Position numbers and translations under genes: made by a program. This document shows positions 24,369-61,485 of a DNA stretch of 64,000 nucleotides, one piece after another. Origin of the DNA: Bacteroidota bacterium (GTDB lineage Bacteria; Bacteroidota; Ignavibacteria; Kapaibacteriales; HRBIN21); NCBI GenBank assembly GCA_030550395.1, contig JAUQPL010000004.1, positions 125,839-189,838 of the forward strand, read 5' to 3'. The notes under the pieces are model-generated. The model did no database searches. It worked only from the letters and a program-made list of their open reading frames with translations, and was not told the DNA's origin. The number at the start of each line of letters is the position of its first letter. Positions within the stretch are counted from its first letter, which is position 1.

Positions 24369-24376
24369 TAAGTTTG
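24369..24376 (+). promoter_or_regulatory. Candidate Bacteroidetes-type sigma-A -7 element TAAGTTTG upstream of the ferredoxin gene
   Basis: An exact TAnnTTTG 34 nt upstream of the ATG, within a GC-rich intergenic region. Confidence 0.4.
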
Positions 24377-24409
24377 CAGCGTCTGTTGTAGGTTGAGCTT
24401 AGGTAAGCA

Positions 24410-24757
24410 ATGGCACTCTACATCACAAGTGATTGCATTAACTGTGGTGCATGCGAACCCGAATGCCCAAATACAGCAATCTACGAGCCAGGCTCGGAGT
24501 GGACACTGGGGGGACAAACCTATCGGGGGTCCTATTCCCCTGGTGGATACAAGCGGGATTTTTGGTCGGAGGAGTATTACTTCATCGTTCCGGACAAGTG
24601 CACAGAGTGTGTAGGCTTTTATGACGAGCCTCAGTGCGCGGCGGTCTGTCCCGTTGACTGTTGCCTGCCGGATCCATTAGCACCGGAGACCCGGGAGCAG
24701 TTGGAGGCGAAGAAGGCGTATTTGGATCAGATTGACCCCGGACGGGTGCGGGTCTAA
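24410..24757 (+). CDS. 2x[4Fe-4S] ferredoxin
   Basis: [12 protein letters not shown] and [18 protein letters not shown] cluster motifs. Confidence 0.8.
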
Positions 24758-24771
24758 GTTGCTGAGGGGTC

Positions 24772-26316
24772 ATGCAGGCCCAGCAGATTTGGCTTCGCAT
24801 TCGGGGGGGGCGTCTGCGGGAGGTTTTCCCACACGACGGAGAGGTAGTTGTTGAGACGGAGGAACGTATAGAACGGTACCCCGGCTGTTGGGCTTTTCCG
24901 GGGTTTGTGGATGCTCATGGACACGTGGTCTTCTATGGGCTGGAGTTGGGGCAGCCCTCCTTGCGTTCATGCCGGAGTGCCGAGGAATGTGTGGAAGTCC
25001 TTCGCTCCTGGGCGCCGAACCGAGGGGAGTGGCTGCTTGGAGGAGGCTGGGACCAAGAGGCCTGGACTTCGGCGGAATTTCCCTCAGCGGAGCTCTTGGA
25101 CGCTGTGTTTCCTGATATCCCTGTTGCGCTGCGTCGGACGGATGGACATGCCCTTTGGGTCAATTCAGAAGCCTTGCGCCGAGCCCATATCCAGGATGAT
25201 ACCCCCGATCCACCGAGTGGACTTATTGTCCGCACGGCAACAGGCAAGCCGACGGGTGTCCTCATTGATGCAGCAGCGGAGTTAGTCCTTCGCTGTATTC
25301 CTGCCCCAAGTTCTGAGGAAATCCGGCAGGCGATTCGGCGGGCTACTGCTCAGTTGCTTCGCTTCGGTATTACGGAAGTTCACGACATGGACGTGGATCC
25401 TTGCTGGGTTCCTGTCTTTGAAGAGCTTGCACGGGCGGGGCAACTTCCTCTCCGAATTCAGAGTTACGTCCGGGCTCAGCATGGGGAGTGGGACGTAGCC
25501 GGACTACTTCCAACGACGGGTGAATTCTTTCAGCTCCGGGGGGTCAAGTTTTATGCTGATGGTGCTTTGGGTTCGTACGGGGCAGCTCTCTTGGAGCCGT
25601 ATAGTGACAAGGTTGGACATCAAGGGTTTCTCTTCTTCAACGCCGAGACCTTGAAGGAGGCTATTCTAGCGGCTTTAGAAGTAGGTTGGCACATCGCCGT
25701 GCACGCCATTGGCGATGCCGCGAACCGGCAAGTTGCGCAAGTATTCCACGCCTTACGGCTACGGGGTATTGATACGACTGAGCAACGGTTGCGCGTAGAA
25801 CATACGCAGATTGTGCATCCGGATGACATTCCCATCTTAGCGGAGGCGGGCTGTGTTGCCTCCGTTCAGCCCCTCCATTGTGTCCATGATGCTCCGATGG
25901 CGCGTCGGAGGCTTGGAAATCAGCGCAGGAGTATTCCCTATCCGTGGCGGAGTCTCCTGGCAGCGGGTGTGCCGATAGCCGCAGGTTCGGATTTTCCCAT
26001 TGAGCCTCCGAATGTCCTTGCAGGAGTTGCTGCTTTTTGCCTCCGCCGCCCCTTCGGGGAGGTGGCCCCGTGGATTCCCGAGGAGTCTCTGGAGTTGGAA
26101 GAGGCGTTTGCGGCGTATACAAACTGGGCGCATTATGCCGCAGCCGTGGATGACCGCCGTGGGCTTCTGCTGCCGGGGTATGATGCCGATGTAGTCATTG
26201 TAGACCGGAATCCAGGTGCATGTTTGCCGGAAGAGGTTTCCAATGTGAGAATTGTTGCCGTCTACGTTGCAGGGGTGAGGCGATGGAGTACAGAGGATAC
26301 AAGAGTGCCTGCATGA
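24772..26316 (+). CDS. Amidohydrolase family protein (Amidohydro_3/YtcJ-like metal-dependent hydrolase)
   Basis: An N-terminal GFVDAHGH metal-binding motif and length typical of the family. Confidence 0.75.
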   Translation: MQAQQIWLRIRGGRLREVFPHDGEVVVETEERIERYPGCWAFPGFVDAHGHVVFYGLELGQPSLRSCRSAEECVEVLRSWAPNRGEWLLGGGWDQEAWTSAEFPSAELLDAVFPDIPVALRRTDGHALWVNSEALRRAHIQDDTPDPPSGLIVRTATGKPTGVLIDAAAELVLRCIPAPSSEEIRQAIRRATAQLLRFGITEVHDMDVDPCWVPVFEELARAGQLPLRIQSYVRAQHGEWDVAGLLPTTGEFFQLRGVKFYADGALGSYGAALLEPYSDKVGHQGFLFFNAETLKEAILAALEVGWHIAVHAIGDAANRQVAQVFHALRLRGIDTTEQRLRVEHTQIVHPDDIPILAEAGCVASVQPLHCVHDAPMARRRLGNQRRSIPYPWRSLLAAGVPIAAGSDFPIEPPNVLAGVAAFCLRRPFGEVAPWIPEESLELEEAFAAYTNWAHYAAAVDDRRGLLLPGYDADVVIVDRNPGACLPEEVSNVRIVAVYVAGVRRWSTEDTRVPA

Positions 26317-26324
26317 GGGTTGTG

Positions 26325-26332
26325 TAAATTTG
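26325..26332 (+). promoter_or_regulatory. Candidate -7 element TAAATTTG upstream of kbl
   Basis: An exact TAnnTTTG 40 nt upstream of the ATG. Confidence 0.4.
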
Positions 26333-28469: not shown

Positions 28470-30461
28470 ATGCGGTACACGGTAGGTCTGGTAGGTGGGA
28501 TTTTGATGGGGTTTGTGGCCTTGGCGCAGCAGATTGTAGCTCCGGTGCTGCCGACGGAGATGACGCCAGTGGAATCCCCTCTGGGGCGGCAAGGGCAAGG
28601 TGGGTATTGGCAGGTACCTCCGATACCACTGATGCTCAAAGGTGGGCGCAGACCGGTTTCTATCCAGGAGTTCATCTTTGATTCCCTGGTCAATGCTTTC
28701 TCTTACTACTCCTGGCAGCAGCAGCCCGTGTGGTGGGATCCGGCCAGTGACGTTCTGATAACGCTCAAGCGTGGTGGGGCAACTTCTCCTGCCGGTGATG
28801 GTAATCGGCTTTACTATCGGTACTCAACTGACCGTGGGCGGTCGTGGTCGGAGCCGGTTCGGGTTTTTGACGGGAATCCACCGACAGGGCGTTTGCCGCG
28901 GTATCCGAGCGTGTATTTACTGAATGCGAACAATTCCACGGATCCGAACGATCTCATGGTGATTTTCGCCAGCCCGGTGACTGATGGAAGCGCATGGGTT
29001 GGGTTCCAAGATGGCTTCACGTACTTGGGGACTACGGATGTCCAGAGCTGGTTCAACGACGGAGTGACGGTGTCTCTCCCGAGCGGCCAGGTCCGATATA
29101 CATGGAGCACAGATTCCCGGATTGCCGCAACACGGGCTGGAGACTTGGCGTTGACCGTTGGGGCACTGATTGCTCCCAGTGGGGTTCCAACGTCGGAGCA
29201 GAATTACATTGGGTTGCGGATACAAGACTTTGCCTCACCCCCATTTGGTTATGTTCCCGACGAATGGCCCAGCAGTCTCTTCGGTGATCCTGGACAGCCC
29301 GGCTACCGTACAAATGTGCCGATCGGTATAGCCCGGGACGATGCAGGGAATCTGGTTGTTGCAATTTTTGGACGATATGCAAACTCGGACGATCCCGCTC
29401 TACCCACCGTTGGCTTCTTTATCTCCCGTGATGGAGGAAATTCATGGCAGGGTCCGAACATCTTGCAGCCTTCGGCAATTCGGGCATATGCGGTAGCGCA
29501 GGGGGCGACGCCCGATTCGGTTTCTGTGCCTTTCGGACTACAGACAGGCGCAGGGGGAAGCATTGCTATACCCAAGTCTTTTACTGCTTACGGAAACGGG
29601 AATGTGAGCATCGCCTTCCAGATTTTTGAGTTTGATAGTCAGAAGCCGCTGGAGCAGCGGGTTGCGCAAATGGTGGAAGCAACTTACAGTAATGGAACAT
29701 GGAACTTGCGGAAAATTAGCGATCGTTCCTGGCTCTCGTTTGCGCTGATAGCGGACCCGAACTCGGCGGCTTCTACGCAGGTTGGCAATGAGCTTCAACT
29801 TTGCCGGACAGCTGATGGTAGGACTCTTTTGGCGAAGTGGATTGAAGGCGCCATCTATATTGCACAAGCGGATATCAACGGCGATGGGATGGCTCCGGAT
29901 ACATTTGTGACAACGGATGTCTACGTAGCCACGCGCCAGCTGCCCGATGGGGAGTGGTCGCAACCGACCAATGTAACTGAGACCCCGATGTGGGATAAGC
30001 TAGCATGGATTCCGCCAATTGTGCCGAACGACCTGCAGCAGATCCCGTTGCTGATGGTGAAGACAGTAGTAGACACATTTGTGTACCCGACGATTTTGGA
30101 GCGATTGGTCAACAGCCAGTGGCAGCTCTTGGAGCGGCAGTATGTGACAATAGGCAACTTCTCGGCTGTGGTGTCAGCTCCGAGTGTGGCGACAAGGAGG
30201 GGACAGGGGTTACAGCTGAAGGTTTTGCCGCATCCTGTGCAGCAGGAGTTGCGTCTTGCAATTGGGAATGCTCTTGGAGGGAATGCTGAAGTTATGCTCT
30301 ACACAGTCAGTGGGGAGCTTGTCATAGCCCGACGGTTAAGCCTTGCGGCGGGAGAGCAGTTGGTTGTGGTACCGCTTGGGGCAATAGCGGCGGGGACGTA
30401 CATGCTGCATGTGCGCCATGGGGGTGAGACAGTAGTTCAGCCTGTGCTTGTCGTACGCTGA
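28470..30461 (+). CDS. Secreted BNR/Asp-box repeat protein with type IX secretion system C-terminal sorting domain
   Basis: The start was refined to MRYTVGLVGGILMGFVALAQQ (signal peptide) after an AGGAG. It has Asp-box motifs (STDRGRSW, SRDGGNSW). The C-terminal ~80 aa matches the Por_Secre_tail pattern (..VLPHPVQQELRLAI..MLYTVSGELV..GTYMLHV..). Confidence 0.6.
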   Translation: MRYTVGLVGGILMGFVALAQQIVAPVLPTEMTPVESPLGRQGQGGYWQVPPIPLMLKGGRRPVSIQEFIFDSLVNAFSYYSWQQQPVWWDPASDVLITLKRGGATSPAGDGNRLYYRYSTDRGRSWSEPVRVFDGNPPTGRLPRYPSVYLLNANNSTDPNDLMVIFASPVTDGSAWVGFQDGFTYLGTTDVQSWFNDGVTVSLPSGQVRYTWSTDSRIAATRAGDLALTVGALIAPSGVPTSEQNYIGLRIQDFASPPFGYVPDEWPSSLFGDPGQPGYRTNVPIGIARDDAGNLVVAIFGRYANSDDPALPTVGFFISRDGGNSWQGPNILQPSAIRAYAVAQGATPDSVSVPFGLQTGAGGSIAIPKSFTAYGNGNVSIAFQIFEFDSQKPLEQRVAQMVEATYSNGTWNLRKISDRSWLSFALIADPNSAASTQVGNELQLCRTADGRTLLAKWIEGAIYIAQADINGDGMAPDTFVTTDVYVATRQLPDGEWSQPTNVTETPMWDKLAWIPPIVPNDLQQIPLLMVKTVVDTFVYPTILERLVNSQWQLLERQYVTIGNFSAVVSAPSVATRRGQGLQLKVLPHPVQQELRLAIGNALGGNAEVMLYTVSGELVIARRLSLAAGEQLVVVPLGAIAAGTYMLHVRHGGETVVQPVLVVR

Positions 30462-32234: not shown

Positions 32235-32242
32235 TAAGTTTG
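32235..32242 (+). promoter_or_regulatory. Candidate -7 element TAAGTTTG upstream of the fused E1 gene
   Basis: An exact TAnnTTTG 30 nt upstream of the ATG. Confidence 0.4.
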
Positions 32243-32271: not shown

Positions 32272-34371
32272 ATGCCCGGGCCGGTGTGGTCTCCTGTGGC
32301 AACTCGTCGGGAGCAGAAGTCTAGCGCAGAGCTATGGTGGGAAGTAGCGCGCTTACTGCTTGTGTCCCGTCGGATTGACGAGATAGAAGAGCAGCGGCTG
32401 CTGCCAGCGGGAAAGATTACGTATCAGTTTTCCGCCAAAGGACACGAGTTGGCACAGATTCTTCTGGGCTTGCACTTGGGGCATTCCCATGATGGGGCAG
32501 CGGTATATTACCGCTCGCGCCCGTTCATGCTGGCGGTCGGACTGACACCGGAGGAGGCTTTTGCTGGGCCTTTAGGGAGGGTGGGGAGTCCGAACAGTGG
32601 GAGGGACATTGGGGTAGTGTTCAATATGCCACCGCGGCGAGGCGTAACGGTGCTTCCTGCCAGCGGTGATGTCGGAGCGCAGTATACTCCGGCAGCCGGA
32701 TGGGCACAGGCGATTCTGTACCGACAGCGGGTATTGCAAGAGCGGGAATGGGAGGGAGCTGTCGCTGTGGCTCTGGGTGGGGATGGCTCCGTGGCTACCA
32801 ATGGCTTTTGGTCGGCATTGACAATGGCTACCACACTCCGGCTACCCATGCTGTTTTTCATTGAGAACAACGGTTATGGCATCTCCGTACCAGCGTCGCG
32901 GCAGGCGCCGGGTGGGCGGATTGCTCCCAATCTGCGCTCTTTCCGTGGTCTGCGCATCTGGGAGGTAGATGGGACCGATCCGAAGGCGATGCAGGAGGTG
33001 CTGATGGAGGTTTTACCGTTTGTCCGCTCTGCCGAGGGACCGGCATTGGTGGAGGTTTCTGTGCCTCGGTTGTGCGGGCATTCCAGTGCGGACACGCAGG
33101 CGTATAAGACGCCAGAGGAACGGGAACAAGAGCAGGCGCGCGATCCACTCCCTCGGCTTCGCCGATTCTTACTGCGGCATCGCCTCGTGGATGCCCAAAG
33201 TTGGCAACAACTGGAGCAGCAGGTTGAACAAGAAGTTCAGTCAGCACTTCAAGCAGCTCTCTCACAGCCAGAGCCCGATCCAGCAACAGCGCGTCGCTTT
33301 CTCTTCTCAGAACCTGGTACTCTCCAGCATGTCGGTGGACTTGCTCCTGAGGGGGTGCAGTTGCCAGAGGGCACGCCGATACCGCAGCCCAGCGGGCCAC
33401 GGATCAATATGGTGGATGCGATTCGGCGAACTCTGGAGCGGGAGATGGAGCTGAATCCTCGGCTGCTGATTTTCGGAGAAGATGTTGGGGTTAAAGGGGG
33501 AGTCCATGGAGCAACGTTGGACCTCCAGCAGAAGTTCGGCGCTGAGCGTGTCTTTGATACTTCGCTTTCTGAGGAGGGAATTATTGGGCGTGCCATTGGA
33601 ATGGCGTTGGCGGGACTGCTTCCGGTCCCGGAGATTCAGTTCCGCAAGTATGCCGATCCGGCAACCGAGCAGCTCAACGATTGTGGGACAATTCGCTGGC
33701 GCACAGCTGGGCGTTTTGCTGCCCCAATTGTTGTGCGTATTCCGGTCGGCTTCAGCAAAGTTACAGGTGACCCATGGCATAGCGTCTGTGGGGAAGCGGT
33801 CTTCGCTCATGCTCCCGGATGGCGGATTGCATTCCCCTCCAATGCAGAGGACGCTGTCGGTCTTTTGCGCGCGGCTCTGCGCGGCAACGATCCCACGATT
33901 TTCTTAGAGCATCGGGCTCTGTACGATACCCCACAGGCACGCCGCCCTTACCCGGGTGATGATTTTGTCCTCCCCTTTGGACAAGCAGCCTTAGTGCGGA
34001 AGGGCGCCTTGGTAACGGTAGTGACGTGGGGAGCGATGCTCTATCGCGTTATAGAGGCGATGGATCGCAGCGGGATTGAAGGTGATGTTATTGACCTGCG
34101 CACGCTGGTTCCCTGGGATAAGGAGGCGGTTTTAAACTCGGTGCGGAAGACGGGACGGTGTCTCATAGTGCACGAGGACACGTGGACGTGTGGGTTTGGA
34201 GCGGAAATTGCTGCTGTCGTTGCTCGGGAAGCTTTCCAATGGTTGGACGCTCCAATTGAGCGCGTTGCTGCGCTGGATTGCCCCGTTCCGTACAACCGGG
34301 GCTTGATGGATGCTGTGCTGCCTACAGTGGAGCGGATTGCGGTAGCATTGGAGCGCCTTCTACGCTTCTGA
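32272..34371 (+). CDS. 2-oxoacid (branched-chain alpha-keto acid) dehydrogenase E1 component, fused alpha/beta subunits
   Basis: The N-terminal half is TPP-binding E1-alpha-like; the C-terminal half is transketolase-like E1-beta. It is a single 699-aa polypeptide. Confidence 0.85.
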   Translation: MPGPVWSPVATRREQKSSAELWWEVARLLLVSRRIDEIEEQRLLPAGKITYQFSAKGHELAQILLGLHLGHSHDGAAVYYRSRPFMLAVGLTPEEAFAGPLGRVGSPNSGRDIGVVFNMPPRRGVTVLPASGDVGAQYTPAAGWAQAILYRQRVLQEREWEGAVAVALGGDGSVATNGFWSALTMATTLRLPMLFFIENNGYGISVPASRQAPGGRIAPNLRSFRGLRIWEVDGTDPKAMQEVLMEVLPFVRSAEGPALVEVSVPRLCGHSSADTQAYKTPEEREQEQARDPLPRLRRFLLRHRLVDAQSWQQLEQQVEQEVQSALQAALSQPEPDPATARRFLFSEPGTLQHVGGLAPEGVQLPEGTPIPQPSGPRINMVDAIRRTLEREMELNPRLLIFGEDVGVKGGVHGATLDLQQKFGAERVFDTSLSEEGIIGRAIGMALAGLLPVPEIQFRKYADPATEQLNDCGTIRWRTAGRFAAPIVVRIPVGFSKVTGDPWHSVCGEAVFAHAPGWRIAFPSNAEDAVGLLRAALRGNDPTIFLEHRALYDTPQARRPYPGDDFVLPFGQAALVRKGALVTVVTWGAMLYRVIEAMDRSGIEGDVIDLRTLVPWDKEAVLNSVRKTGRCLIVHEDTWTCGFGAEIAAVVAREAFQWLDAPIERVAALDCPVPYNRGLMDAVLPTVERIAVALERLLRF

Positions 34372-35673: not shown

Positions 35674-35708
35674 CGCGTGCTGGGGAGTGATTTCAAAATT
35701 ACCGTAAA

Positions 35709-36260
35709 TTGCCCTTCCAGCGGGAGCCAGAGATGGTGCCGGACCAGGTGGTGACGAGCGTCTTGGAGCGGAAGACCCGGCAGCGTCTCCGAGAGTATGG
35801 TGTGCTTGTGCTGATGCTGGGTTTTTTCGTCAGCGTGTTTACGCCGGTGGTAGAACTTGGCCTCGCACTCCCGATTGGCCTCTTAGCATTGGCCATGGGG
35901 ATGAGCTTGGCATGGTTGCGGGAATATCGGCGATTGCTTGCGAATTCATACTATCGCTTGGCGGTAGAGGCGTCGGAAAGCTTTCTGTTGCTAGTGTTGT
36001 TGGGAGGTTCGGCTTTTTTAGCCCATGGTCTGCGCCTATCGCTGGTTCTGTACCAAGCACATTTGAGCTATGCACTCTTTGGGTACTTAGTTGGCTCGTT
36101 AGCGGGGGAGGTAGGGTGGCGTCGTTTGGTGTTCGGACGGCTTTTAGCCGAGCAGCAGTATCGGTATGTGCAGAATCTCTCGCCCTCGGTTCTTCTTCCC
36201 TACTCGTGGCGTCATTTCCGGTTGCTGTGGCGTCGGTGGCGTGATGGTCGTGAGGGATGA
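35709..36260 (+). CDS. Hypothetical 4-TM membrane protein
   Basis: Hydrophobic segments; the start is possibly MVPDQ at 35733. Its stop overlaps the next ATG (ATGA). Confidence 0.45.
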   Translation: MPFQREPEMVPDQVVTSVLERKTRQRLREYGVLVLMLGFFVSVFTPVVELGLALPIGLLALAMGMSLAWLREYRRLLANSYYRLAVEASESFLLLVLLGGSAFLAHGLRLSLVLYQAHLSYALFGYLVGSLAGEVGWRRLVFGRLLAEQQYRYVQNLSPSVLLPYSWRHFRLLWRRWRDGREG

Positions 36261-46948: not shown

Positions 46949-47089
46949 TGCAGTGTGCTTTGCTGGAAGACGAGCTTGGGAACAGACGCAAAATTAGAAA
47001 GCCTGCTCCTTGACTGCGGATTGAGAAGGGGCTTGGTTCGGCAGAGTGTTTCCCTAATTTCGCCCTGTGTCGAATACAGCGGGCGAGAC

Positions 47090-48091
47090 ATGCAGGCATT
47101 AGTGCTGAGGGCAGACAATTTCGGTATTGAGGAGGTGGAGCTACCTGTGCTACGTTCGGGGGAAGCGCGAGTGCGCCTATTGGCGGCAGCGCTTAACCGA
47201 AGGGATGAGTGGATTCGGCAGGGGCGGTATGCACGGATTCGATATCCGGCGATCTTGGGTTCGGATGGCTGCGGGATAGTGGAAGCAGTTGGTTCTGACG
47301 AACATCGGGAGTGGGTGGGGAAGACGGTGATTATCAATCCCAGTATCGGTTGGGGTACCGATCCACGGGCCCAGGGAGCTGACTACGAGATTCTTGGAAT
47401 GCCAAGAGCTGGGACCCTTGCCGAGTATGTCCATGTTCCTGTGGATCGGCTCCATGAAAAGCCGCCGCATATGACCGTGGAGCAAGCAGCAGCGCTTCCA
47501 TTAGCTGGGTTGACGGCATATCGGGCTTTATTCACCCAAGGGAAGCTCCAGCCTCGGCAGAAGGTTCTCATCACTGGTATTGGCGGAGGAGTGGCGGTTT
47601 TCGCTCTTCAATTTGCCGTTGCTGTTGGAGCACGAGTTTTTGTGACCTCTGGGCGCGCGGAGAAATTGGAGCGGGCGCAAGCGCTCGGTGCCATCGGTGG
47701 CGTCAATTACCATCATCCGGAGTGGGAACGCTTGCTGCGAGAGTTCGCCGATGGGGAGTTTGAGCTTGTTGTGGATAGCGCTGGCGGCGAACCTTTCAAT
47801 GCCTTGTTGGGCTTGACGGCTCCTGGGGGTACCATCGTCGTCTACGGAGCGACCTTGGGGACCGTGCCGGCTTTCAATCTCCATCGCCTCTTCTGGCGTC
47901 AGCTTCACATTGTGGGGAGCACAATGGGAACGGATGAGGAATTTGTCGCTATGGTGCGCTTCGTCTGCGAGCACCGTATTGTGCCCGTTGTCGACAGTGT
48001 GTTCCCCTTTGAGCAAGTGATGGATGCCTTTGAGCGCTTGCGTTCCGAGGAACATATGGGAAAAATTGTCGTCCGAATTGCCGAGGCTTAG
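47090..48091 (+). CDS. Zinc-binding alcohol dehydrogenase / quinone oxidoreductase (MDR family)
   Basis: GroES-like N-terminal domain plus a Rossmann fold (ITGIGGGVAVFALQ). The start was refined to MQALVLR at 47090. Confidence 0.8.
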   Translation: MQALVLRADNFGIEEVELPVLRSGEARVRLLAAALNRRDEWIRQGRYARIRYPAILGSDGCGIVEAVGSDEHREWVGKTVIINPSIGWGTDPRAQGADYEILGMPRAGTLAEYVHVPVDRLHEKPPHMTVEQAAALPLAGLTAYRALFTQGKLQPRQKVLITGIGGGVAVFALQFAVAVGARVFVTSGRAEKLERAQALGAIGGVNYHHPEWERLLREFADGEFELVVDSAGGEPFNALLGLTAPGGTIVVYGATLGTVPAFNLHRLFWRQLHIVGSTMGTDEEFVAMVRFVCEHRIVPVVDSVFPFEQVMDAFERLRSEEHMGKIVVRIAEA

Positions 48092-48945
48092 CGTCGTCCG
48101 TAGGTTTGCTCTCGGATGCGTTCCAGCAGCTCCGAATTCTCCGCCGATTGAGGGGTAAGGTTTTGAGAGCGGATGCGGGCAAGGAGGTCGGTGTAAGTGG
48201 CAATTTCCTGTTCTCGTTGTTGGATTTCCCGTTCCAGCTCCCGGCGACGTTGGGCTAACCATTCGGGGTCCGAAAGGGGAAGGCAGAAAGGTTCTTCGGC
48301 ACGAAGTTGCTCCAGCCGACGGCGCTCAACAGTAAGGCGTCGTTCCAGCTGGCTAATTCGGCGGCGCAGATACTCAAGTGAAGCCGGCTCAGATTCTGGC
48401 TCGGCGTCAAGCATTTCGCTGCACAGGAGGAAGTAAAGTTGCCGTAAGTGGTGGATGTTCCGCTCGCGGTAGGCGCGCTGAACCGCTGTCCAGTATCGGC
48501 GGAATTCCTCTGTTTCTGCTCCAGCGGCATCGGGATGGAGCCGTTTGACGAGTAGACGGTAGAGCTTGGGAAACTCTTCGGCCTCTGCTGCAGGAGATTG
48601 TGTCCGGTGCGGTTGTTCAGGAGCATGAAGACGTTCCCATAGGGCTGCAAATTCTCGGGCGACGATTTGTTCCACCAAAGCAAAGGTGCGCTCTGTGATG
48701 GGTTCCCCCCGCTGGAGTTTGACGAGGAGCAGTTCTACACGTCGGCGCAATTGCGCCGCGCGGAGGGAGACATTCTGGAGTTGAAGCTCTAAGGTGCGGA
48801 AGTGGCGTTCGTATTCGGCAAGGAGGGAGGGATAGAGTTCGGTGCGGAGAAAGAAGTATTCCTGCAGTGTCTGCCGCAGGGCATCCTGAAGCTCACGGTA
48901 TCGTTGCCGGAGCTGTTCAATTTCCGGATGGGGAATCGGTTGCAT
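48088..48945 (-). CDS. J-domain (DnaJ-like) protein with long coiled-coil N-terminal region
   Basis: HPD motif in J-domain context (KLYRLLVKRLHPDAAG). The start was refined to MQPIPHPE at 48945, after GGAGGA. Confidence 0.55.
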   Translation of the reverse strand: MQPIPHPEIEQLRQRYRELQDALRQTLQEYFFLRTELYPSLLAEYERHFRTLELQLQNVSLRAAQLRRRVELLLVKLQRGEPITERTFALVEQIVAREFAALWERLHAPEQPHRTQSPAAEAEEFPKLYRLLVKRLHPDAAGAETEEFRRYWTAVQRAYRERNIHHLRQLYFLLCSEMLDAEPESEPASLEYLRRRISQLERRLTVERRRLEQLRAEEPFCLPLSDPEWLAQRRRELEREIQQREQEIATYTDLLARIRSQNLTPQSAENSELLERIREQTYGRR

Positions 48946-49297
48946 AGGGGGATGACTCCTCCGGATGCCACTGTTCGAGCGCCTCAATGGTGAAACGCAG
49001 GTGAGGGATAACAATGGAACCACCAACGATTAGCCCAATGGAGAGAGCTTCGTAAATCTCCTGCCGTGTAGCACCGTAATGCAGAGCTTGGTCCAGGTGG
49101 TAGAGGATGCAGTCGTTGCACCGCAGCACAAGCGACGCCACCAGTCCCATGAGCTCTTTGATGCGGCGTGGCAGTGCTCCCTCCTCGTACGTAGCGCCGT
49201 CTAAAGCGAAAAAGCGACGGAAATGCCGGACGTCGGTAGCCAGGATGGCGGCATTCTGCTGTTTGCGCCGTTGGCGGAACTCTTCCCATAGGGTCAT
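48917..49297 (-). CDS. Carboxymuconolactone decarboxylase (AhpD-like) family protein
   Basis: CMD-family core with a CxxxH-type motif (LRCNDCILYHLDQAL). Confidence 0.7.
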   Translation of the reverse strand: MTLWEEFRQRRKQQNAAILATDVRHFRRFFALDGATYEEGALPRRIKELMGLVASLVLRCNDCILYHLDQALHYGATRQEIYEALSIGLIVGGSIVIPHLRFTIEALEQWHPEESSPYATDSPSGN

Positions 49298-51222: not shown

Positions 51223-53257
51223 CTGCCGCTAGTATGAGGGCAAGACCCAAGCAGTATTGCCACAGTTCCGTCGCCTCTATTCCCTCTATGGATAGCGAGA
51301 GCAGCTTCTCCGGCGAGGGGATATATCGGAACGAAGCGGCTGGACTTAAGACCTGACGGAACCACGCGGCGATAGTCTCCTGGTCTGCGTGCTCTAATTG
51401 TAGTTCAGCCGCGGGAAGATTTGCATTGACTGTGGCAACAGGAGCACCTTGGAGAGTTGCCAGTTCGTAAGTCCCAATGTCCCTGAGCTGCCCCAATTCT
51501 ATGCGAGTTCCCGAGCTTAAGGGAAGCGAAGGCACAGTTCGCCGGCTCCCGTTAGGCTCGCGCACGGTGAAGGCATCTGCTGAGGTCGGTAACGTCAATG
51601 CTACTTGTTCACCACTGCTGCGGAAGAAGACAGGTGCTGCAGCCGGACCGGCAAGGAGAACAGCGCGCACCAAAAATATTGGGAAAAGCCCACTGCGGGG
51701 AAAGTCGCCCCATGTCGGATCGACAGCAAGCCCGCAGAAAAAAAGATGTCCTTGCCCGATGCGCTGTTCGGCAAGGACGGCTCCGGCGGAGCTCCGGAGC
51801 AGCGGAACGGTGCCGCTGAGAAGCATCAGGCGCTCCAGACGTGGAGTCTCTGGCAGGCGTTCCCCATCGCTTTCTCCAATAAAGACCCCCGCAAAGAGCG
51901 GATGGTGCTTATCAGCCCAGGTCACAGTCGCTGGCTGTGTTGGAGGAAAGCTCCGTTGCTGTGCTGTAAGTCCAAAGCGGGCAAGCCATCTGGGCAGAAG
52001 GTCAGCGGACTGACCGCCTGCTGCAAACAGAACGACTCCACCGCCAGCTCGGAGGAAGGCTTCGATCCGCTGTAGAGACACTTCCCGGAGGTCATCGGTA
52101 GCAATGACCAGTACTCGGAAAGCACTGAGATTCTCCGCTTCTAAAGCGGTGGATGAGAGCACCTGTGGTTGAAAGGGAAGTACTTGGGCAGGGAAGGCAG
52201 AGAGGGCAGCTTCTATGAAGGGGCGGGCAGCTTCATTGGTAATGACCCCTACGGGGAATGGCTCTGGCACGGCAAAGCCCGCAAAGCAGCGCTCCCCAAT
52301 AGGAGCAACATCCCCTTCGGCGATGACAACGGCGGAGGTGAAGCCCGGACGGAGAGGAGTACCCGTTAATGTGAGAGTTCGCCTCTCTCCGGCGCGGAGG
52401 GCAACATGCTGTTGGGCAACCCGCTCCTGTCCCAACAAGAGTCCAATCATCGCTTCTGCCGTGCCTTCTCCGAAGGCACGGACTCGGACTGTTACGGTGA
52501 CCGGCTCCCCAAGGGCGCGCAACTGTGTTTCCAGAGCTACAGAATCAAGAACAAGCACAGCACGGGACAGCTTCGCTTCACCTAAATCAACAGCGTGCAC
52601 GCTGGTGCGGCCATCAAAAAGATGCATCTCTGGCGGTGCTTCTGCGAGAGCACTTCTTTGGAAATCGCTCAATACGAGGACAAAACGATGGGCATGAGAA
52701 GACCGGTTGAGGAGAAGAGCCGCTCGCTGGAGTGCTTGGCTCAGGTTTCCCTGACTCGGCTGTGGGTTTAGAGCGGAGAGTAATCTCAAGACCTCCCCGC
52801 GAGGGCTGTCCCACCCCTCCGCCTGTGCTGGCGCGTTGGGAATGACAGGCACAATGGCAACCTCATCTTCTGCCGAAAGCGAGCGGATGAGGCGTTCAGC
52901 ATACTGTTGGAGTCGCCGGAAGCGTTCGCCCTGGACATCGGCGATACCCATGCTGGCGGAGTTGTCCACGATGAGCACAACGCTGGCGGGGGCTCGGGTC
53001 CCCACCAGGGGGATTTTTCCTGGAATAACCGGTTGGGCAAAGGCCAGAACGATAGAGGCTATCAAAGCCATCCGCACAGCTAAGAGCAAGAGCTGTCGGA
53101 GCCGGAAGCGGCGAGCCGTGCTCCGTTGGAGTTCCTTCAGGAAACGCAGAGAGCTGAACGGGAATGGGCGGGGCTTCCGCAGTGTGAGGAAATGCAGCAG
53201 CAGTGGAACAAGCGTTGCTGCTAACGCTACCAACGCAAGGGGATTGAGGAAATTCAT
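51167..53257 (-). CDS. BatA-type N-terminal double-TM + von Willebrand factor A (VWA) domain protein
   Basis: N-terminus MNFLNPLALVALAATLVPLLLHFL..; VWA MIDAS motif (VVLIVDNSASMG). Confidence 0.7.
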   Translation of the reverse strand: MNFLNPLALVALAATLVPLLLHFLTLRKPRPFPFSSLRFLKELQRSTARRFRLRQLLLLAVRMALIASIVLAFAQPVIPGKIPLVGTRAPASVVLIVDNSASMGIADVQGERFRRLQQYAERLIRSLSAEDEVAIVPVIPNAPAQAEGWDSPRGEVLRLLSALNPQPSQGNLSQALQRAALLLNRSSHAHRFVLVLSDFQRSALAEAPPEMHLFDGRTSVHAVDLGEAKLSRAVLVLDSVALETQLRALGEPVTVTVRVRAFGEGTAEAMIGLLLGQERVAQQHVALRAGERRTLTLTGTPLRPGFTSAVVIAEGDVAPIGERCFAGFAVPEPFPVGVITNEAARPFIEAALSAFPAQVLPFQPQVLSSTALEAENLSAFRVLVIATDDLREVSLQRIEAFLRAGGGVVLFAAGGQSADLLPRWLARFGLTAQQRSFPPTQPATVTWADKHHPLFAGVFIGESDGERLPETPRLERLMLLSGTVPLLRSSAGAVLAEQRIGQGHLFFCGLAVDPTWGDFPRSGLFPIFLVRAVLLAGPAAAPVFFRSSGEQVALTLPTSADAFTVREPNGSRRTVPSLPLSSGTRIELGQLRDIGTYELATLQGAPVATVNANLPAAELQLEHADQETIAAWFRQVLSPAASFRYIPSPEKLLSLSIEGIEATELWQYCLGLALILAAVEVALSRRLRKDETTPPP

Positions 53258-54833: not shown

Positions 54834-54841
54834 CAAAAATA
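54834..54841 (-). promoter_or_regulatory. Candidate -7 element TATTTTTG upstream of dnaB (minus strand)
   Basis: An exact TAnnTTTG on the minus strand ending ~31 nt before the dnaB ATG. It is embedded in the 13-mer AAAATACACAAAA that recurs at 62247-62259. Confidence 0.45.
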
Positions 54842-55803: not shown

Positions 55804-57251
55804 AGGCGTTCGATGATATAGCCGTCGCGGAGGTCCTTGATGGTATAGCCAGCTTGCTGGATCTGGTAGCGAAGTGCATCGGCTTCGGCGTAACGTCGCT
55901 GCAGACGCAGTTGCCAACGCTGCTCGGCTAGACGGCGAATTTCTTCGGGAATTTCCTCTGGCGGGCGTGGGGCGATATCCCAGACGTCCACGATTTGGTT
56001 GAGTTCCGAGATAAAGTGCAGGACTTCCCGGCGACTTTCGGCAGAGAGAGCAGTAGCGGGAGTGGCGTTGAGGAAGCTGAAGAATTCAGCGAATGCTTTC
56101 GGTGTATGGAGGTCATGGGCAAGGTGACTAAAGATGCGTTCCCGGACAGCAGCAACATCGACGTGGATGCCATCGTCTGGTGCTGGCTCGTGGAGGGCAT
56201 AGATGTACTCCTGTACCCGCTTCCGAGCACCTCGGGCAGCTTCTATACCGGCAAAGGTGAAGTTGAACGGTGAGCGGTAGTGTGCCCCCAGCATGGCGAA
56301 ACGGATATCCAGTGGGTCTATACCCTGCTTCAGCAGGTCGCGCAGTGTGAAGAAGTTGCCCAAGGACTTGCTCATCTTCTGTCCCTCTACCTCCAAGAAC
56401 TCGTTGTGCACCCAGAAGCGGGTGGGGTCTACGCCGTATCCTGCCATGCTTTGGGCGATCTCATTTTCGTGATGGGGGAAACGCAGGTCAATTCCGCCGG
56501 TGTGGATGTCAAAGGGGAGCCCCAACAGTTCGTGTTCCATTGTGGAACATTCCAGGTGCCATCCAGGGCGCCCAGGCAGCTGACGTCCCTGGAGCTCAAA
56601 GTCCCAGTATGGTTCGCCGGGCTTCCATGCCTTCCAGAGCACAAAGTCGGTTACTTCCTGGCGTTCGTACTGGTCGGCGTCAATGCGGGCACCAGGCTTA
56701 ATGGAGGCAAGGTCAATCGGAAGAAGGCGCCCGTATGGAGCAACGGCCTGCCAGGCAGAGAGGTCAAAGTAGACGCTATTGCCGGCGATATAGCCGAAGC
56801 CGCGCTCTACGATGCGGCGTACCAGGTCTTGCATCTGCGGGATGTATTCTGTCGCCCGTGGCATAGCCGAGAGATCACGACGGCGGATGTGTAACCGCTC
56901 GATGTCTTCCAGAAAGGCTTGTTCGTAGAAGCTAGTGTAGCGGCGGAGATTCTCCCGCGGGTCATCGGTCTGCTCGCCCATTTCCGGACGCCAGAGAGGG
57001 CTGCCAGGAGCACTGCCACGGATGGTCTTGTCGTCGATATCGGTAATGTTCATCACCCAACGGACCTCATAGCCGCCGACCACGCGCAGCACCCGCTGCA
57101 AAAGATCTGCACAGAGGAAAGCCCGCATGTTGCCGATATGAGCGTAGTCGTAGACAGTTGGTCCGCACGTGTACATGCGAACCTCTCCATCCCGGAGAGG
57201 TTCAAAGGGATCAATGCGGCGGGTCAGCGTGTTGAAAAGCTCAATCTGCAT
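55800..57251 (-). CDS. cysS: Cysteine--tRNA ligase
   Basis: Class I aaRS HIGH (HIGN) and KMSKS motifs; N-terminus MYTCGPTVYDYAHIGN. Confidence 0.92.
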   Translation of the reverse strand: MQIELFNTLTRRIDPFEPLRDGEVRMYTCGPTVYDYAHIGNMRAFLCADLLQRVLRVVGGYEVRWVMNITDIDDKTIRGSAPGSPLWRPEMGEQTDDPRENLRRYTSFYEQAFLEDIERLHIRRRDLSAMPRATEYIPQMQDLVRRIVERGFGYIAGNSVYFDLSAWQAVAPYGRLLPIDLASIKPGARIDADQYERQEVTDFVLWKAWKPGEPYWDFELQGRQLPGRPGWHLECSTMEHELLGLPFDIHTGGIDLRFPHHENEIAQSMAGYGVDPTRFWVHNEFLEVEGQKMSKSLGNFFTLRDLLKQGIDPLDIRFAMLGAHYRSPFNFTFAGIEAARGARKRVQEYIYALHEPAPDDGIHVDVAAVRERIFSHLAHDLHTPKAFAEFFSFLNATPATALSAESRREVLHFISELNQIVDVWDIAPRPPEEIPEEIRRLAEQRWQLRLQRRYAEADALRYQIQQAGYTIKDLRDGYIIERL

Positions 57252-58653
57252 CGTGTCTCTGGGAGCGATAGCTGTTGATGTCGATGGCGTATTCTTTGAT
57301 TAAGCGATGACAATGTTCGCGGCTAATACCCAGCCTGTGGGCTGTCTGAGTGACATTGCCCCTACATACCTTGAGCGTTTGTATCAGTAGCTCTTGAGTG
57401 ACCCGTTTTTTGGTTTCCCACAATCCACCGTTGGTAGGAGACGGCTGTTGGGTTTTAGCTCTTTTTAGGGCTGCCAGTACGATCCGTCGGGTGATAGACG
57501 AGGTGCCTTCATCGGCAGCAATGATGAGGCAGTTGCGGATGACGTTTTGGAGTTCGCGCACGTTCCTTTCCCATTTATGCAACCGAAGTTCTTCCAGGGC
57601 TGGTTCTGCGAACTCAAAGTGGCGAGGCTTCTGGTCCTTCCAAATTTGTGTCGGTAGCGTGCGGGCGAAATACCGGGCTAAATGGTCAATATCTTCAGGG
57701 CGTTCGCTCAGAGATGGCACGGTAAGGATTGCTTGGCTGAGGCGCTCGTAAAGGTCGCGGCGAAAACGCCCTTCATCCACCATGCGGGGGAGCTCACAGT
57801 TTGTTGCCGAAATGATGCGGATGTCAACAGTTTCCTCTTTGGTGGAACCTACTCGGGTGAAGCGTTTCTCTTCAATCGGCTTGAGGAGCTTTAGCTGTTG
57901 CTCCGGCGAGAGGTTGCCGATTTCGTCCAGGAAGAGGGTGCCTCTATTGGCTTCGTGGAAGAAGCCATCGGTGTTTTCGGCTCCTGTATATGCTCCCTTG
58001 GCGGTGCCAAAGAGGCGGCTACTGAAAAGCTCGGTAGAGCTAGCAATATTGGGGATATCCACTGTAACCCAGGGTCCATTCCGGCGGTGACTTGCTTCGT
58101 GTAAGGCACGGGCGATGAGCGTCTTGCCTGTTCCCGTTTCTCCTAAGATGAGGACAGAAAGCTCTGTCGGGCCGTAGGACGTAATGAAGCGGGCAACCTC
58201 TACCATTGCAGGGCTTCGGGTCTCTATGCCAAAGTGGCGGAGATACTGCAGAAGTTCGCTCGTTTTGCCAGGGAGCTCCTGGCGCAATGTCCCTAAGTGC
58301 TCGACTAAATTTGCTAGCTGGTCTTTAGGGATATAGCTACGTGCCCCTTGCTTAATGGCCTGTTCTATGTAGACGGCTCGCTCGTAGTTGGAGAGCATAA
58401 ACACCGGAGGCGGAGAAGGCAGTTGAAGGATGTTGTCCAGCAATTGGAGTCCTAATGGTTCTTCTCCAAAGCGGACGTCCAGCAGGACGGCGAAAACGTT
58501 TGCTGAAGAGGAATTAGACACGAAGGACAGTCCTTCCTCTGGATCCGTGAAGCCTCGGACTTGGTAGCCGTGGGGGGTGAGGAGCTCGTGGATACGGTCA
58601 ATAGAGCTCTGTTCATCGTCAATTGCCACAACGAGGTAAGGCTCCTGTAGCAT
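57241..58653 (-). CDS. Sigma-54-dependent Fis-family response regulator (NtrC-like)
   Basis: A receiver domain (phospho-Asp in LLDVRFG), an AAA+ sigma-54 activator domain (ILGETGTGKTLIARALH), and a C-terminal Fis-type HTH. Confidence 0.85.
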   Translation of the reverse strand: MLQEPYLVVAIDDEQSSIDRIHELLTPHGYQVRGFTDPEEGLSFVSNSSSANVFAVLLDVRFGEEPLGLQLLDNILQLPSPPPVFMLSNYERAVYIEQAIKQGARSYIPKDQLANLVEHLGTLRQELPGKTSELLQYLRHFGIETRSPAMVEVARFITSYGPTELSVLILGETGTGKTLIARALHEASHRRNGPWVTVDIPNIASSTELFSSRLFGTAKGAYTGAENTDGFFHEANRGTLFLDEIGNLSPEQQLKLLKPIEEKRFTRVGSTKEETVDIRIISATNCELPRMVDEGRFRRDLYERLSQAILTVPSLSERPEDIDHLARYFARTLPTQIWKDQKPRHFEFAEPALEELRLHKWERNVRELQNVIRNCLIIAADEGTSSITRRIVLAALKRAKTQQPSPTNGGLWETKKRVTQELLIQTLKVCRGNVTQTAHRLGISREHCHRLIKEYAIDINSYRSQRHDAD

Positions 58654-58707
58654 GGAGAAATACAGGGAGGTTTATGGTACACGAACCCACCCAAATTTAG
58701 CACGTTC

Positions 58708-59151: not shown

Positions 59152-60632
59152 ACGGCTGTCCGGAGGTACTCCATGAAGATAGGGAGCTGCGAGGCAAGGA
59201 ATTCCCGGAGGCGTCGGATGCATTCGGATTTTCCGAGGACCTCCATTGTTTCGAAGATGCCAGCCCCGACAGATTTACCAGTGAGGATAAGGCGCAGCGG
59301 GTGAACAAGCGCTCGCAACGGTTGACCCCGGCTTTCAGTGAATTCCCGGATGCGCTGTTGGAGGAGTTCGGCGTGGAAAGGTTCCGTCTGCTCCAGAACG
59401 CGGATCAGCTCTTCCAGCCATTGGGGGAGATCTTCATGCCAGTGCTTGCGGAAGTAGTCCCAGTCGTATGAGCGTGGTGGGATGAAGAGGTAGTCTCCAA
59501 AGGTAGCAATCTCCGGAAGCCTATTGACCCGTTCCCGTAGCAAGGCGATGGCTCGCATGAGATACGTTTGTGGGAACTCGGGGTAACCTAATTGAGACAA
59601 GTACGGCTGGAGTTCCCGGGCTAATCGTTCCAACGGCAGGCGTCGGAGATACTGGGCATTAAGCCAATCCAGCTTGTTGCGGTCAACGATTGCCGGAGCC
59701 CGATTGACTTTAGTAAGCTCGAAGCTGGCGATGAGTTCGTCCAACGTGAAGAGTTCTCGGTCTGCTGTAGGATTCCAGCCTAGGAGGGCGACGAAATTGA
59801 GCAGTGCCTCTGGGAAGTAGCCCTGGCGACGGAAGTCTTCTACCGCAACGTCCCCGTGGCGCTTGCTCAGCTTACTGCGGTCGGGATTGAGCAAGAGAGG
59901 TAAGTGAGCAAATTGTGGCGGTTCCCAGCCGAAGGCTTCGTAGAGGAGAATGTGCTTCGGGGTGGAGGGAATCCACTCCTCACCTCGGATGACGTGAGTG
60001 ATACGCATAAAGTGGTCATCTACCACATTCGCCAGATGGTAGGTGGGGAATCCGTCGGATTTGAGGAGTACCTGGTCGTCGATGTCTCGGCTGTGCACGC
60101 TGATTTCTCCGCGGATGAGGTCATGGAAACAAATCTGGCGGTCCAAAGGCACCAGCAACCGTATGACGGCAGGAGCGCCTTCGGATAGGAGCCGTCGTAC
60201 CTCCTCCGGTGGCAAGGTGAAGCTATTGCGCATGGAAAATCGGTCGTACTTGGGCGCAATTCCCGCACGCCGTTGGTGTTCACGCATCCGCTCTAACTCC
60301 TCCGGAGTGTCAAAAGCGTAATAGGCGCTTCCCCGCTCCACGAGGAGGTGCGCTTGCTGTCGGTAAAGTTCCAGGCGCTGGGATTGGACGTATGGACCGT
60401 AAGGACCGCCAACGTGAGGACCTTCGTCAAACTCCAATCCGACCCAGCGGAGCATTTCGATGATGTTCTCCACCGCTCCGGGAACGGTTCGCTCCTGGTC
60501 GGTGTCTTCTATGCGAAGGATGAAGCTACCTCCATGGTGCCGGGCAAAGAGGAAGTTGTAGAGGGCTGTCCGCAGACCACCGATGTGGAGGAGACCCGTC
60601 GGCGAAGGAGCAAAACGGACACGGGTGCTCAT
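59148..60632 (-). CDS. gltX: Glutamate--tRNA ligase
   Basis: N-terminus RFAPSPTGLLHIGGLRTALYN (HIGH) and a KLSKR (KMSKS) motif. Confidence 0.92.
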   Translation of the reverse strand: MSTRVRFAPSPTGLLHIGGLRTALYNFLFARHHGGSFILRIEDTDQERTVPGAVENIIEMLRWVGLEFDEGPHVGGPYGPYVQSQRLELYRQQAHLLVERGSAYYAFDTPEELERMREHQRRAGIAPKYDRFSMRNSFTLPPEEVRRLLSEGAPAVIRLLVPLDRQICFHDLIRGEISVHSRDIDDQVLLKSDGFPTYHLANVVDDHFMRITHVIRGEEWIPSTPKHILLYEAFGWEPPQFAHLPLLLNPDRSKLSKRHGDVAVEDFRRQGYFPEALLNFVALLGWNPTADRELFTLDELIASFELTKVNRAPAIVDRNKLDWLNAQYLRRLPLERLARELQPYLSQLGYPEFPQTYLMRAIALLRERVNRLPEIATFGDYLFIPPRSYDWDYFRKHWHEDLPQWLEELIRVLEQTEPFHAELLQQRIREFTESRGQPLRALVHPLRLILTGKSVGAGIFETMEVLGKSECIRRLREFLASQLPIFMEYLRTAV

Positions 60633-61102
60633 GCAGACTTCTGGGTCGTGAGACTTTCAGGCTCGTGATGCTGGACAGACAGTGGGAGGCTCACCTCCGC
60701 AAAGGTACGTTCGGTTTCATGGACGCGCACCCACAGGCGATGCAGGTTCGGGTATTGAGAGAGGGAAACGCTGAGCTGTTCGGCAAGCCAGCGGGCAATA
60801 TTTTCTGCCGTGCTTGGGAAGGGAACGTAGACGACCTTAAGGGTAGGGTGTTGACGGAAGAAGGTGGTCATGACCGTATCGTCTTCGGAGCAAAGAAATG
60901 CATGGTCCAAGCGTTGGATGATTGGCTCAACGAGGCGTGCTAGCTCTATGTAGTCCAGCACCATGCCCTGTGCATCGGGCTTACCTTCCAGGGTAATGAC
61001 GGCGCGATAGGAATGACCATGCAGATTCTGGCAACCGCAGGTGTGAAAGGGAAGGCGGTGTGCCATCTCCCAGCGGAATTCCTTAGCAATGCGCATGGTC
61101 AT
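60629..61102 (-). CDS. queD: 6-carboxy-5,6,7,8-tetrahydropterin synthase QueD
   Basis: CxxxHGH motif (CQNLHGHSY) and PTPS fold length. The start was refined to MTMRIAKEF; it has ATGA overlaps at both ends. Confidence 0.8.
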
Positions 61103-61452
61103 GAGGTTTCTGGGCGTTCGTAGCGTGCGTGGATTACCGAGCGCATACCACCGCGGGTATTCCACTCCGTAATGACCTCCATCTCCAGCGGGTCGCAAGC
61201 TGCGACTAAGTCGTCCAAGATGCGGTTGGTGACATCCTCGTAGAAGATACCCATGTTGCGGTACTGGAGGAAGTAGTACTTCAGCGATTTTAGCTCCAGG
61301 CAGAGCTTATCGGGCACATAGCGGATGGTCACTGTACCGAAATCAGGAAGTCCTGTCCGGGGGCAAACAGAGGTGAACTCAGGATTGATGTGGGTAATAA
61401 CGTAGCGCCGACCGGGCTTAGGGTTGGGAAAGGTTTCGATCTGAGCTGCCAT
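61099..61452 (-). CDS. queF: NADPH-dependent 7-cyano-7-deazaguanine reductase QueF (type I)
   Basis: QueF motifs ([16 protein letters not shown]; the C-terminal E..HE region). Confidence 0.85.
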
Positions 61453-61477
61453 ACCAACGGGAGGGCAACCATGGGAC

Positions 61478-61485
61478 GGATTAAA
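61478..61485 (-). promoter_or_regulatory. Candidate -7 element TAATTTTG upstream of queF (minus strand)
   Basis: An exact TAnnTTTG on the minus strand ending 25 nt before the queF ATG. Confidence 0.4.

Follow-up and report, generated by a model that had tools for sequence, protein, structure and literature searches.

TAnnTTTG octamers as probable sigma-A promoter elements in an uncultured Kapabacteria bacterium

In Bacteroides and Flavobacterium, a primary sigma factor of unusual type binds the sigma-A box, TAnnTTTG, at positions -12 to -5 of promoters (PMC9723704, PMC7366714). The same octamer recurs upstream of genes in a 64,000-nt stretch of contig JAUQPL010000004.1 (assembly GCA_030550395.1, positions 125,839 to 189,838), hereafter called the window. 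An earlier note, written from the letters alone, took these octamers for the -7 elements of Bacteroidetes-type sigma-A promoters. This raises the question of whether they are promoter signals at all and, if so, of which sigma factor reads them. The analysis described here suggests, with a probability of roughly 0.87, that they are the -7 promoter element of a housekeeping sigma-A of the Bacteroidetes type in an uncultured Kapabacteria bacterium.

The host was placed by homology searches, the best 120 matches being listed. The best genome matches of the fused E1 dehydrogenase of the window, at 78-84% identity, are bacterium HR21 and metagenome-assembled genomes (MAGs) labelled Candidatus Kapabacteria, Candidatus Kapaibacterium, Chlorobiota or Bacteroidota. 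The best matches of ribosomal protein S1 come from the same lineage (HR21, Candidatus Kapabacteria/Kapaibacterium). This clade, the former 'Chlorobi lineage 5' or OPB56, is known from metagenomes only, many of them from thermal sites (PMC6338057), and the Kapaibacteriaceae are placed in Bacteroidota in the current NCBI taxonomy. The matches thus point to Candidatus Kapabacteria rather than to a classical Bacteroidetes. The previous assignment to the Fibrobacteres-Chlorobi-Bacteroidetes group holds on independent protein homology, with Kapabacteria in the place of classical Bacteroidetes as the lineage. The argument then drawn from cargo proteins of the type IX secretion system is plausible, with thin support at 28470-30461, where the C-terminal part (residues 587-657) of a 663-aa secreted protein matches the sorting domain Por_Secre_tail only weakly (E 0.0065). 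By homology, by NCBI placement and by the RpoD clade reported in 10.1101/172254, the host falls within a lineage carrying an unusual primary sigma factor.

Distribution of the octamer in the window

About 52 genes were identified with Pfam, and their starts were set by domain positions, lipoprotein and signal peptides, overlaps with neighbours and the gene tables of relatives. After corrections of this map, non-coding DNA makes up 2,558 nt (4.0%) of the window. The motif TANNTTTG, that is, the TAnnTTTG octamer, was searched as a pattern on both strands. It has 29 matches, compared with 16.2 ± 3.4 in dinucleotide shuffles, and none of 100 shuffles reaches 29. The shuffle mean exceeds the approximately 10 chance occurrences estimated earlier, and the window has 56.9% GC where 62% had been stated.

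The octamer excess over chance is entirely intergenic. Coding DNA holds 17 octamers, which is about the chance level. The 12 others are intergenic and all of them lie on the strand facing the adjacent gene. In promoter-facing intergenic DNA (2,901 nt), these 12 octamers compare with 0.75 ± 0.86 in dinucleotide shuffles of the same DNA (maximum 7 in 2,000 trials; none reaching 12), and the opposite strand of the intergenic DNA (2,215 nt) contains no octamer. With the first gene map, octamer density on the promoter-facing intergenic strand was about 22-fold that of coding DNA. The view that octamers at promoter positions are not random is therefore borne out more strongly than it had been put.

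The spacing is narrow. Counted from the first T of each box, start codons follow at 31, 37, 38, 41, 43, 46, 46, 48, 48, 56 and 102 nt, so that ten of the 12 intergenic boxes stand 31-56 nt before a start codon; the mature 5' end of tRNA-Ala lies 22 nt downstream of the first T of its box. The range of 25-45 nt upstream given in the earlier note was thus roughly right, the whole range found being 22-102 nt. Composition is also constrained. Position 3 is A or T in all 12 intergenic octamers, and the resulting word TAWNTTTG has only four matches in 61 kb of coding DNA. The base before TA is G or C in about 90% of box-aligned sites, and the final G is mostly followed by a pyrimidine. An unbiased 6-mer enrichment in promoter-facing intergenic DNA ranks TAATTT, TGTATT, ATTTTG, GTATTT and CTAATT at the top, all of which are pieces of the box. 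The box stands out because it is an isolated AT-rich island in a 57% GC background.

From gene order and gaps, about 22 transcription units can be deduced in the window. An exact box is found in 12 of them and a conserved one-step variant, either TAnnTTGY (one T shorter) or TAWTTTCG, in six more. A majority of units (~18 of ~22) thus has a box, as expected for promoters of the Bacteroidetes sigma-A type. The genes behind the boxes are functionally unrelated and include a tRNA pair. Canonical sigma-70 signals are absent from the same DNA: pairs of -35 and -10 hexamers (9 of 12 positions) number 0 for 0.53 expected, TATAAT-like hexamers with at most one mismatch are not enriched (6 for 5.3 expected), and no canonical sigma-70 promoter was found in 46300-47200. 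Sigma-54 promoters of the form TGGCAC-N5-TTGC, with at most one mismatch, number 9 for 5.1 expected, none being convincingly placed.

By analogy with the published promoters, it can be proposed that the RNA polymerase holoenzyme binds a box of the form S-TAWNTTTG-Y, that the DNA is opened there and that transcription starts about 5 nt after the final G. When the -12 to -5 geometry of the literature is applied to the boxes, the predicted leaders of the protein genes are 19, 25, 26, 29, 31, 34, 34, 36, 36, 44 and 90 nt long (median 34), and the precursor of tRNA-Ala and tRNA-Gln would have a 10-nt leader.

Exact boxes and their conservation in relatives

Gene order is conserved in Kapabacteria relatives. 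Because their protein identities are about 50% to 97%, intergenic DNA had time to diverge. The octamers are nevertheless conserved as islands at orthologous promoters while their flanks diverge. Boxes are kept before the ferredoxin gene, kbl, the tRNA pair, the C39-peptidase ABC exporter, queF, the sigma-54 activator, a 55-aa open reading frame (ORF) and, in one of two relatives, dnaB. The exceptions are the second SBP5 gene, the E1 gene in two relatives and dnaB in one. Among the variants, those of rpsA, the membrane-protein gene, the alcohol dehydrogenase and the SPOR gene are kept, and an exact box replaces the variant at wzc and at the sugar transferase gene. Loci of relatives carry L-numbers (L002, L103 and so on). 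L022 comes from the one close relative given by a metagenome scan with gltX; the other loci of that scan, at 45-62% identity, were set aside as too distant or not syntenic.

Octamer placement in the relatives agrees with that in the window. Six high-GC loci (L103-L106, L110 and L111; 122 kb, with independent gene calls) have 18 of their 23 octamers in the 3.1% of DNA that is intergenic, and these 18 stand 31-54 nt before a called gene start or just before uncalled tRNA genes. In L103, L110 and L111, every octamer is intergenic and promoter-oriented. Three low-GC loci labelled Kapaibacterium or Ignavibacteria contain many coding octamers, by chance, and 11 of their 17 intergenic octamers are found 28-55 nt before genes.

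Six of the 12 exact sites of the window had been listed previously, five of them at the coordinates given below. The six others, before the Kdo transferase gene, the C39-peptidase exporter, the second SBP5 gene, the 55-aa ORF, the sigma-54 activator gene and the ORF starting at 63590, are additional.

The ferredoxin-amidohydrolase operon has the box TAAGTTTG at 24369-24376 (+), ahead of ATG 24410; the predicted start site is at ~24381, which would give a 5' untranslated region (5'UTR) of ~29 nt. This box, in the form TAAGTTTG or TAAATTTG, occurs in five of five lineages, and its flanks have diverged; in L105 it reads TAATTTTG. Upstream of the operon comprising kbl, a 3-hydroxyacyl-CoA dehydrogenase gene and a secreted-protein gene, TAAATTTG is located at 26325-26332 (+; ATG 26373; predicted start ~26337). 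There, GTAAATTTG is the sole invariant nine-column block in an alignment of six sequences having 59% mean column identity. The box of the fused E1 dehydrogenase gene, TAAGTTTG at 32235-32242 (+; ATG 32272; predicted start ~32247), is kept in three of five relatives (L003, L004 and L016). After Kapabacteria, Chloroflexota/Anaerolineae MAGs provide most of the next-best genome matches of the E1 protein itself (32272-34371; loci L006-L018, 57-63% identity). Among the matches listed, a Sphingomonas label appears once and Bacteroidia not at all, a pattern that hints at gene exchange between lineages.

The Kdo transferase gene is preceded by TAATTTTG at 35694-35701 (-; ATG 35655; predicted start ~35689), and in relatives this position is taken by TAATTTCG or TAATTTGG. 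The C39-peptidase ABC exporter/HlyD operon also has TAATTTTG, at 41103-41110 (-; predicted start ~41098). The true ATG of the exporter is at 41079, in frame with an ORF that starts at 41157, and the box is found in every relative examined (L002, L003, L004, L005, L110 and L111), 31-36 nt before the start. On the other strand, TATTTTTG follows a T-run at 41178-41185 (+), upstream of tRNA-Ala, tRNA-Gln and the genes downstream of them, with a predicted start at ~41190. The sequence CTATTTTTG is invariant there in four lineages, and L110 has TATTTTCG at the same place. The two tRNAs lie at 41200-41273 (tRNA-Ala) and 41281-41354 (tRNA-Gln); an Rfam scan finds these two, no other RNA gene in the large gaps and nothing at the boxes. 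The second SBP5 lipoprotein gene has TATGTTTG at 43791-43798 (+; ATG 43847), possibly an internal promoter.

At 46989-46996 (-), TAATTTTG precedes the 55-aa ORF (46781-46948, -; ATG 46948). This ORF had been overlooked; its product shares 71-76% identity with proteins called in relatives, where the box reads TAAATTTG (L103), TAATTTTG (L111) or TAATTTCG (L110). The 675-nt gap 46415-47089 was at one stage considered as a promoter without a gene; this was rejected, the gap holding the 55-aa ORF and the remnant of a deleted gene. In the remnant (46477-46602, -), the 43 C-terminal residues of a D-serine-dehydratase-like gene are left (tblastn, 51% identity, E 1.4e-8); this gene is intact after the small ORF in L110 and L111 and deleted in the window.

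The dnaB box, TATTTTTG at 54834-54841 (-; predicted start ~54829), is assigned to a true ATG at 54803, not to TTG 55217, and is kept as TATTTTTGAG in L110 at -34. The operon of the sigma-54 activator, cysS and the DUF2520 gene has TAAATTTG at 58692-58699 (-; ATG 58653), kept in L022. The queF/queD/gltX operon has TAATTTTG at 61488-61495 (-; ATG 61452), 10 nt from the 61478-61485 reported earlier; it is kept in L022, with diverged flanks. Finally, the ORF that starts at 63590 has TAATTTTG 102 nt before it, at 63488-63495 (+), a distance that implies either a long leader or a misplaced start codon.

Two exact octamers within genes deserve mention. One, TATTTTTG, lies inside batA on the sense strand (51671-51678, -), and the other, TAAATTTG, is antisense within the sigma-54 activator gene (58306-58313, +). 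They may be an internal and an antisense promoter, respectively, or due to chance.

Variant boxes and the reader of the motif

The near-matches of the earlier note, before rpsA, the sugar transferase gene, the membrane-protein gene, the SPOR gene and wzc, are all where it placed them and all stand at orthologous sites. The TAnnTTGY form matches exactly motif SM5 of F. psychrophilum, which occupies the position of the sigma-A box, is one base pair shorter and is followed by a pyrimidine (PMC9723704). In the window, this form precedes rpsA, the sugar transferase gene and the membrane-protein gene, and is conserved in relatives at all three. At rpsA, it reads TAATTTGC (18125-18132, +) and is kept in four of four lineages. 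The rpsA box is contained in a 26-nt block (18116-18141, CAAAAAGCGTAATTTGCATTGCTTTT) kept in four lineages, where an inverted repeat AAAAGC/GCTTTT flanks it. Since this conserved stretch is longer than at the other promoters, an additional regulatory or UP-like element may be part of it. The sugar transferase/GFO/Wzi operon also has TAATTTGC, at 24277-24284 (-; ATG 24191); at that position, relatives read TAATTTGC or TAATTTGT (TAATTTGY, four lineages) or, in HR21, the exact TAAGTTTG. Upstream of the membrane-protein/NAGPA operon, the variant is TAAATTGC (35705-35712, +), and a TAnnTTGY word precedes this gene in all five relatives as well as in the window (six lineages). The boxes of the Kdo transferase and membrane-protein genes stand back to back on opposite strands in 35694-35712, three bases apart (CAAAATTACCGTAAATTGC), and CAAATTAcgTAATTTG-like sequences preserve the arrangement in five relatives. 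Overlap of the two binding sites for polymerase is unavoidable there, which suggests mutually exclusive or coupled firing.

The TAWTTTCG form is found in three units. Upstream of wzc and the long minus-strand gene chain that follows it, TATTTTCG lies at 15562-15569 (-; ATG 15509); at the orthologous position, 48-54 nt before wzc, the box of three relatives is the exact TATTTTTG. The zinc alcohol dehydrogenase gene, absent from the earlier note, has TAATTTCG at 47055-47062 (+; ATG 47090), kept in four of four lineages (relatives L103, L110 and L111). The SPOR/TPR gene has TATTTTCG at 62247-62254 (-; ATG 62215), and GTGTATTTTCGT is kept in L022.

Several explanations other than a sigma-A promoter have to be considered for the exact octamers. 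They could be functionless chance products of AT-rich intergenic DNA; the intergenic regions, at 44-58% GC, are indeed somewhat AT-richer than the window average, and the site before the second SBP5 gene is not conserved. However, shuffling that very DNA yields 0.75 ± 0.86 octamers, and the 12 observed were attained in none of 2,000 shuffles; all 12 lie on the promoter-facing strand, and the boxes are invariant islands in diverged alignments. The chance explanation is thus refuted. A short conserved word upstream of genes could also be the operator of a specific transcription factor governing one regulon, and the back-to-back pair at 35694-35712 looks palindromic. Nevertheless, the box precedes unrelated genes (tRNAs, dnaB, ferredoxin, kbl, queF, the exporter, S1 and lipopolysaccharide genes) and more than half of the transcription units, it is directional and at a narrow distance from start codons, and its sequence is that of the sigma-A box published for the same phylum. 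These features make an operator very improbable. The idea that the motif acts in the RNA, as a 5'-leader element for translation or stability, is more improbable still. It would fit with a location within 60 nt of start codons and with the unusual AT-rich translation signals known from Bacteroidetes in place of Shine-Dalgarno (SD) sequences. A role in translation is, however, excluded because the box precedes a tRNA, the gene of which begins 14 nt downstream of the motif. Moreover, distances of 31-56 nt to start codons are too long and too variable for ribosome contact, and neither covariation nor structure is seen at the motif, where Rfam finds nothing.

A more serious alternative concerns the variants. 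In this scheme, sigma-A would read the exact boxes, and an alternative sigma factor would read the TAnnTTGY boxes of rpsA, the sugar transferase gene and the membrane-protein gene and the TAWTTTCG boxes of wzc, the SPOR gene and the alcohol dehydrogenase gene. For motif SM5, PMC9723704 leaned towards such a factor. In the window, two of the three TAnnTTGY sites precede envelope genes, and none of the lineages examined departs from the form at rpsA or the membrane-protein gene. However, the forms interchange at orthologous promoters: TAATTTGY in four lineages and TAAGTTTG in HR21 for the sugar transferase gene, TATTTTCG in the window and TATTTTTG in three relatives for wzc, TAATTTTG in the window and TAATTTCG or TAATTTGG in relatives for the Kdo transferase gene, TATTTTTG in the window and TATTTTCG in L110 for the tRNA pair, and TAATTTTG in the window and TAATTTCG in L110 for the 55-aa ORF. 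In addition, rpsA would be an improbable target of a minor sigma factor. An alternative sigma factor therefore appears unlikely, and the interchange argues for one reader of both forms.

Some observations weigh against the sigma-A reading. A -33 TTG or TTTG element, expected 17-23 nt before the -7 box, was sought at fixed and variable spacing; none appears in 12 sites, nor in 38 aligned sites of the window and its relatives taken together. The rpoD gene is neither in the window nor in any fetched locus, so that a Bacteroidetes-type sigma factor is assumed from phylogeny. The start sites at the boxes are predicted positions, and some box-to-start distances depend on hand-curated gene starts. 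Orthologous sites in relatives are not independent observations. At the level of single sites, the E1 box is absent from L002 and L005, where E1 abuts the upstream gene, and the dnaB box is degenerate (GTTTTTTG) in L103, one of two relatives. The box of the second SBP5 gene, the weakest site, is not kept in L103, L110 and L111, where the gene gap is 11-27 nt, and the box at 63488 is poorly supported at 102 nt from its ORF.

The reading as a Bacteroidetes-type sigma-A -7 element is supported by enrichment, orientation, conservation and the match to the published TAnnTTTG box. Promoters of sigma-A (sigma-ABfr), with a -7 TAnnTTTG and an optional -33 TTTG/TTG, go back to Bayley 2000 and Vingadassalom 2005, as these are cited in PMC7366714 and PMC9723704, and are known in Bacteroides fragilis, B. 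thetaiotaomicron, Flavobacterium johnsoniae and F. psychrophilum. In B. thetaiotaomicron, 81% of primary start sites have the motif in front of them (PMC7366714, PMC9723704). The -33 element varies, and in F. johnsoniae it was not recovered on a global scale (PMC7366714). The 5'UTRs have medians of 24 nt in F. psychrophilum and 32 nt in B. thetaiotaomicron (PMC9723704). The window shares with these systems an identical -7 consensus, directional placement before most units, the lack of canonical -35 and -10 elements and the TAnnTTGY variant, and the predicted leaders, of median 34 nt, are near the published medians of 24-32 nt. It differs from them in its host, a Kapabacteria MAG at 57% GC outside class Bacteroidia and known here from sequence alone, in which about a third of the genes have SD-like sequences. 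It also differs in the box itself, with position 3 always A or T, G or C before it in about 90% of sites and no detectable -33 element.

Two other promoter types are useful for comparison. In Chlorobaculum tepidum, which belongs to a related Bacteroidota/Chlorobiota lineage, a preprint based on differential RNA sequencing gives the RpoD motif as TTG-N17-23-TA[ATC][ATC][AT]T and groups the RpoD proteins of Bacteroidetes and Chlorobi in one clade (10.1101/172254). Its element shares the initial TA and, in the same position, the AT-rich core. However, its consensus lacks the terminal TTTG that is invariant here, its TTG at about -35 is not seen in the window, and two boxes of the window (TAAGTTTG) have a G at position 4, outside that consensus. 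Canonical sigma-70 promoters (TTGACA-N17-TATAAT) likewise serve housekeeping initiation, and the initial TA and the T four bases on fit a TAnnnT core. Here, in contrast, the TTTG extension is without counterpart, the box is closer to the predicted start and TATAAT-like words are not enriched.

More tentatively, with odds below even, it can be proposed that the housekeeping promoter of Kapabacteria is essentially of a '-7 only' type (S-TAWNTTTG-Y, without -33) and that one and the same sigma-A also reads TAnnTTGY and TAWTTTCG, given that these forms and the exact box replace each other at orthologous promoters. In that case, the Bacteroidetes-type pair of sigma factor and promoter would predate the split of Kapabacteria from Bacteroidia, the green sulfur bacteria would later have relaxed the TTTG half, and the assignment of the flavobacterial SM5-type motif to an alternative sigma factor would need revising.

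The literature searched yielded no report on promoters of Kapabacteria or Ignavibacteria. Sequence analysis thus appears to document a known promoter type in a new uncultured lineage, not a new mechanism or system. The range of the full TAnnTTTG box would be extended to 'Chlorobi lineage 5', which lies between Bacteroidia and the green sulfur bacteria (the latter having a reported box without TTTG), and this is mildly informative on when the pair of promoter and sigma factor arose. For a lineage known only from metagenomes, the boxes give likely start sites and operon boundaries, and the work corrected gene starts and brought out the missed 55-aa gene. Where members of the group are GC-rich, promoters can be found with very little noise by simply searching for the word, which is useful for annotating MAGs and for designing expression tools.

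Units without a box and gene-map observations

Several longest-ORF starts were found to be wrong, among them those of dnaB, the C39-peptidase exporter, wzc (ATG 15509) and the alcohol dehydrogenase (47090). Two quick codon-score gene callers were dropped, as many genes were missed or over-extended. A CMD-family gene (48917-49297, -) was added from the gene table of a relative; it occupies the apparent 348-nt gap 48946-49293, which was thus rejected as intergenic DNA.

Neither box nor variant is found upstream of dnaK, hsp20 and the FGE-sulfatase/cytochrome operon, all three of which probably use other sigma factors. The adenine deaminase gene has none either. The heat-shock upstream regions concerned are 2282-2379 and 2824-2971 (dnaK, hsp20). 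Upstream of hsp20, a weak sigma-54-like sequence, TGGCAC-N5-TCCT, has two mismatches; a sigma-54 activator is encoded at 57241-58653. Upstream of the FGE-sulfatase/multihaem cytochrome operon (15592-15617), a block GCACGAAG...TTGCTCGTTT is kept in three relatives and is a candidate promoter for an alternative sigma factor, possibly of the extracytoplasmic function (ECF) type.

The translation signals of the window can also be considered. GGAG, GAGG or AGGA is found 4-19 nt before 17 of 49 start codons, compared with 8-10 of 49 at control positions inside genes. Unlike class Bacteroidia, this lineage may make some use of SD pairing.

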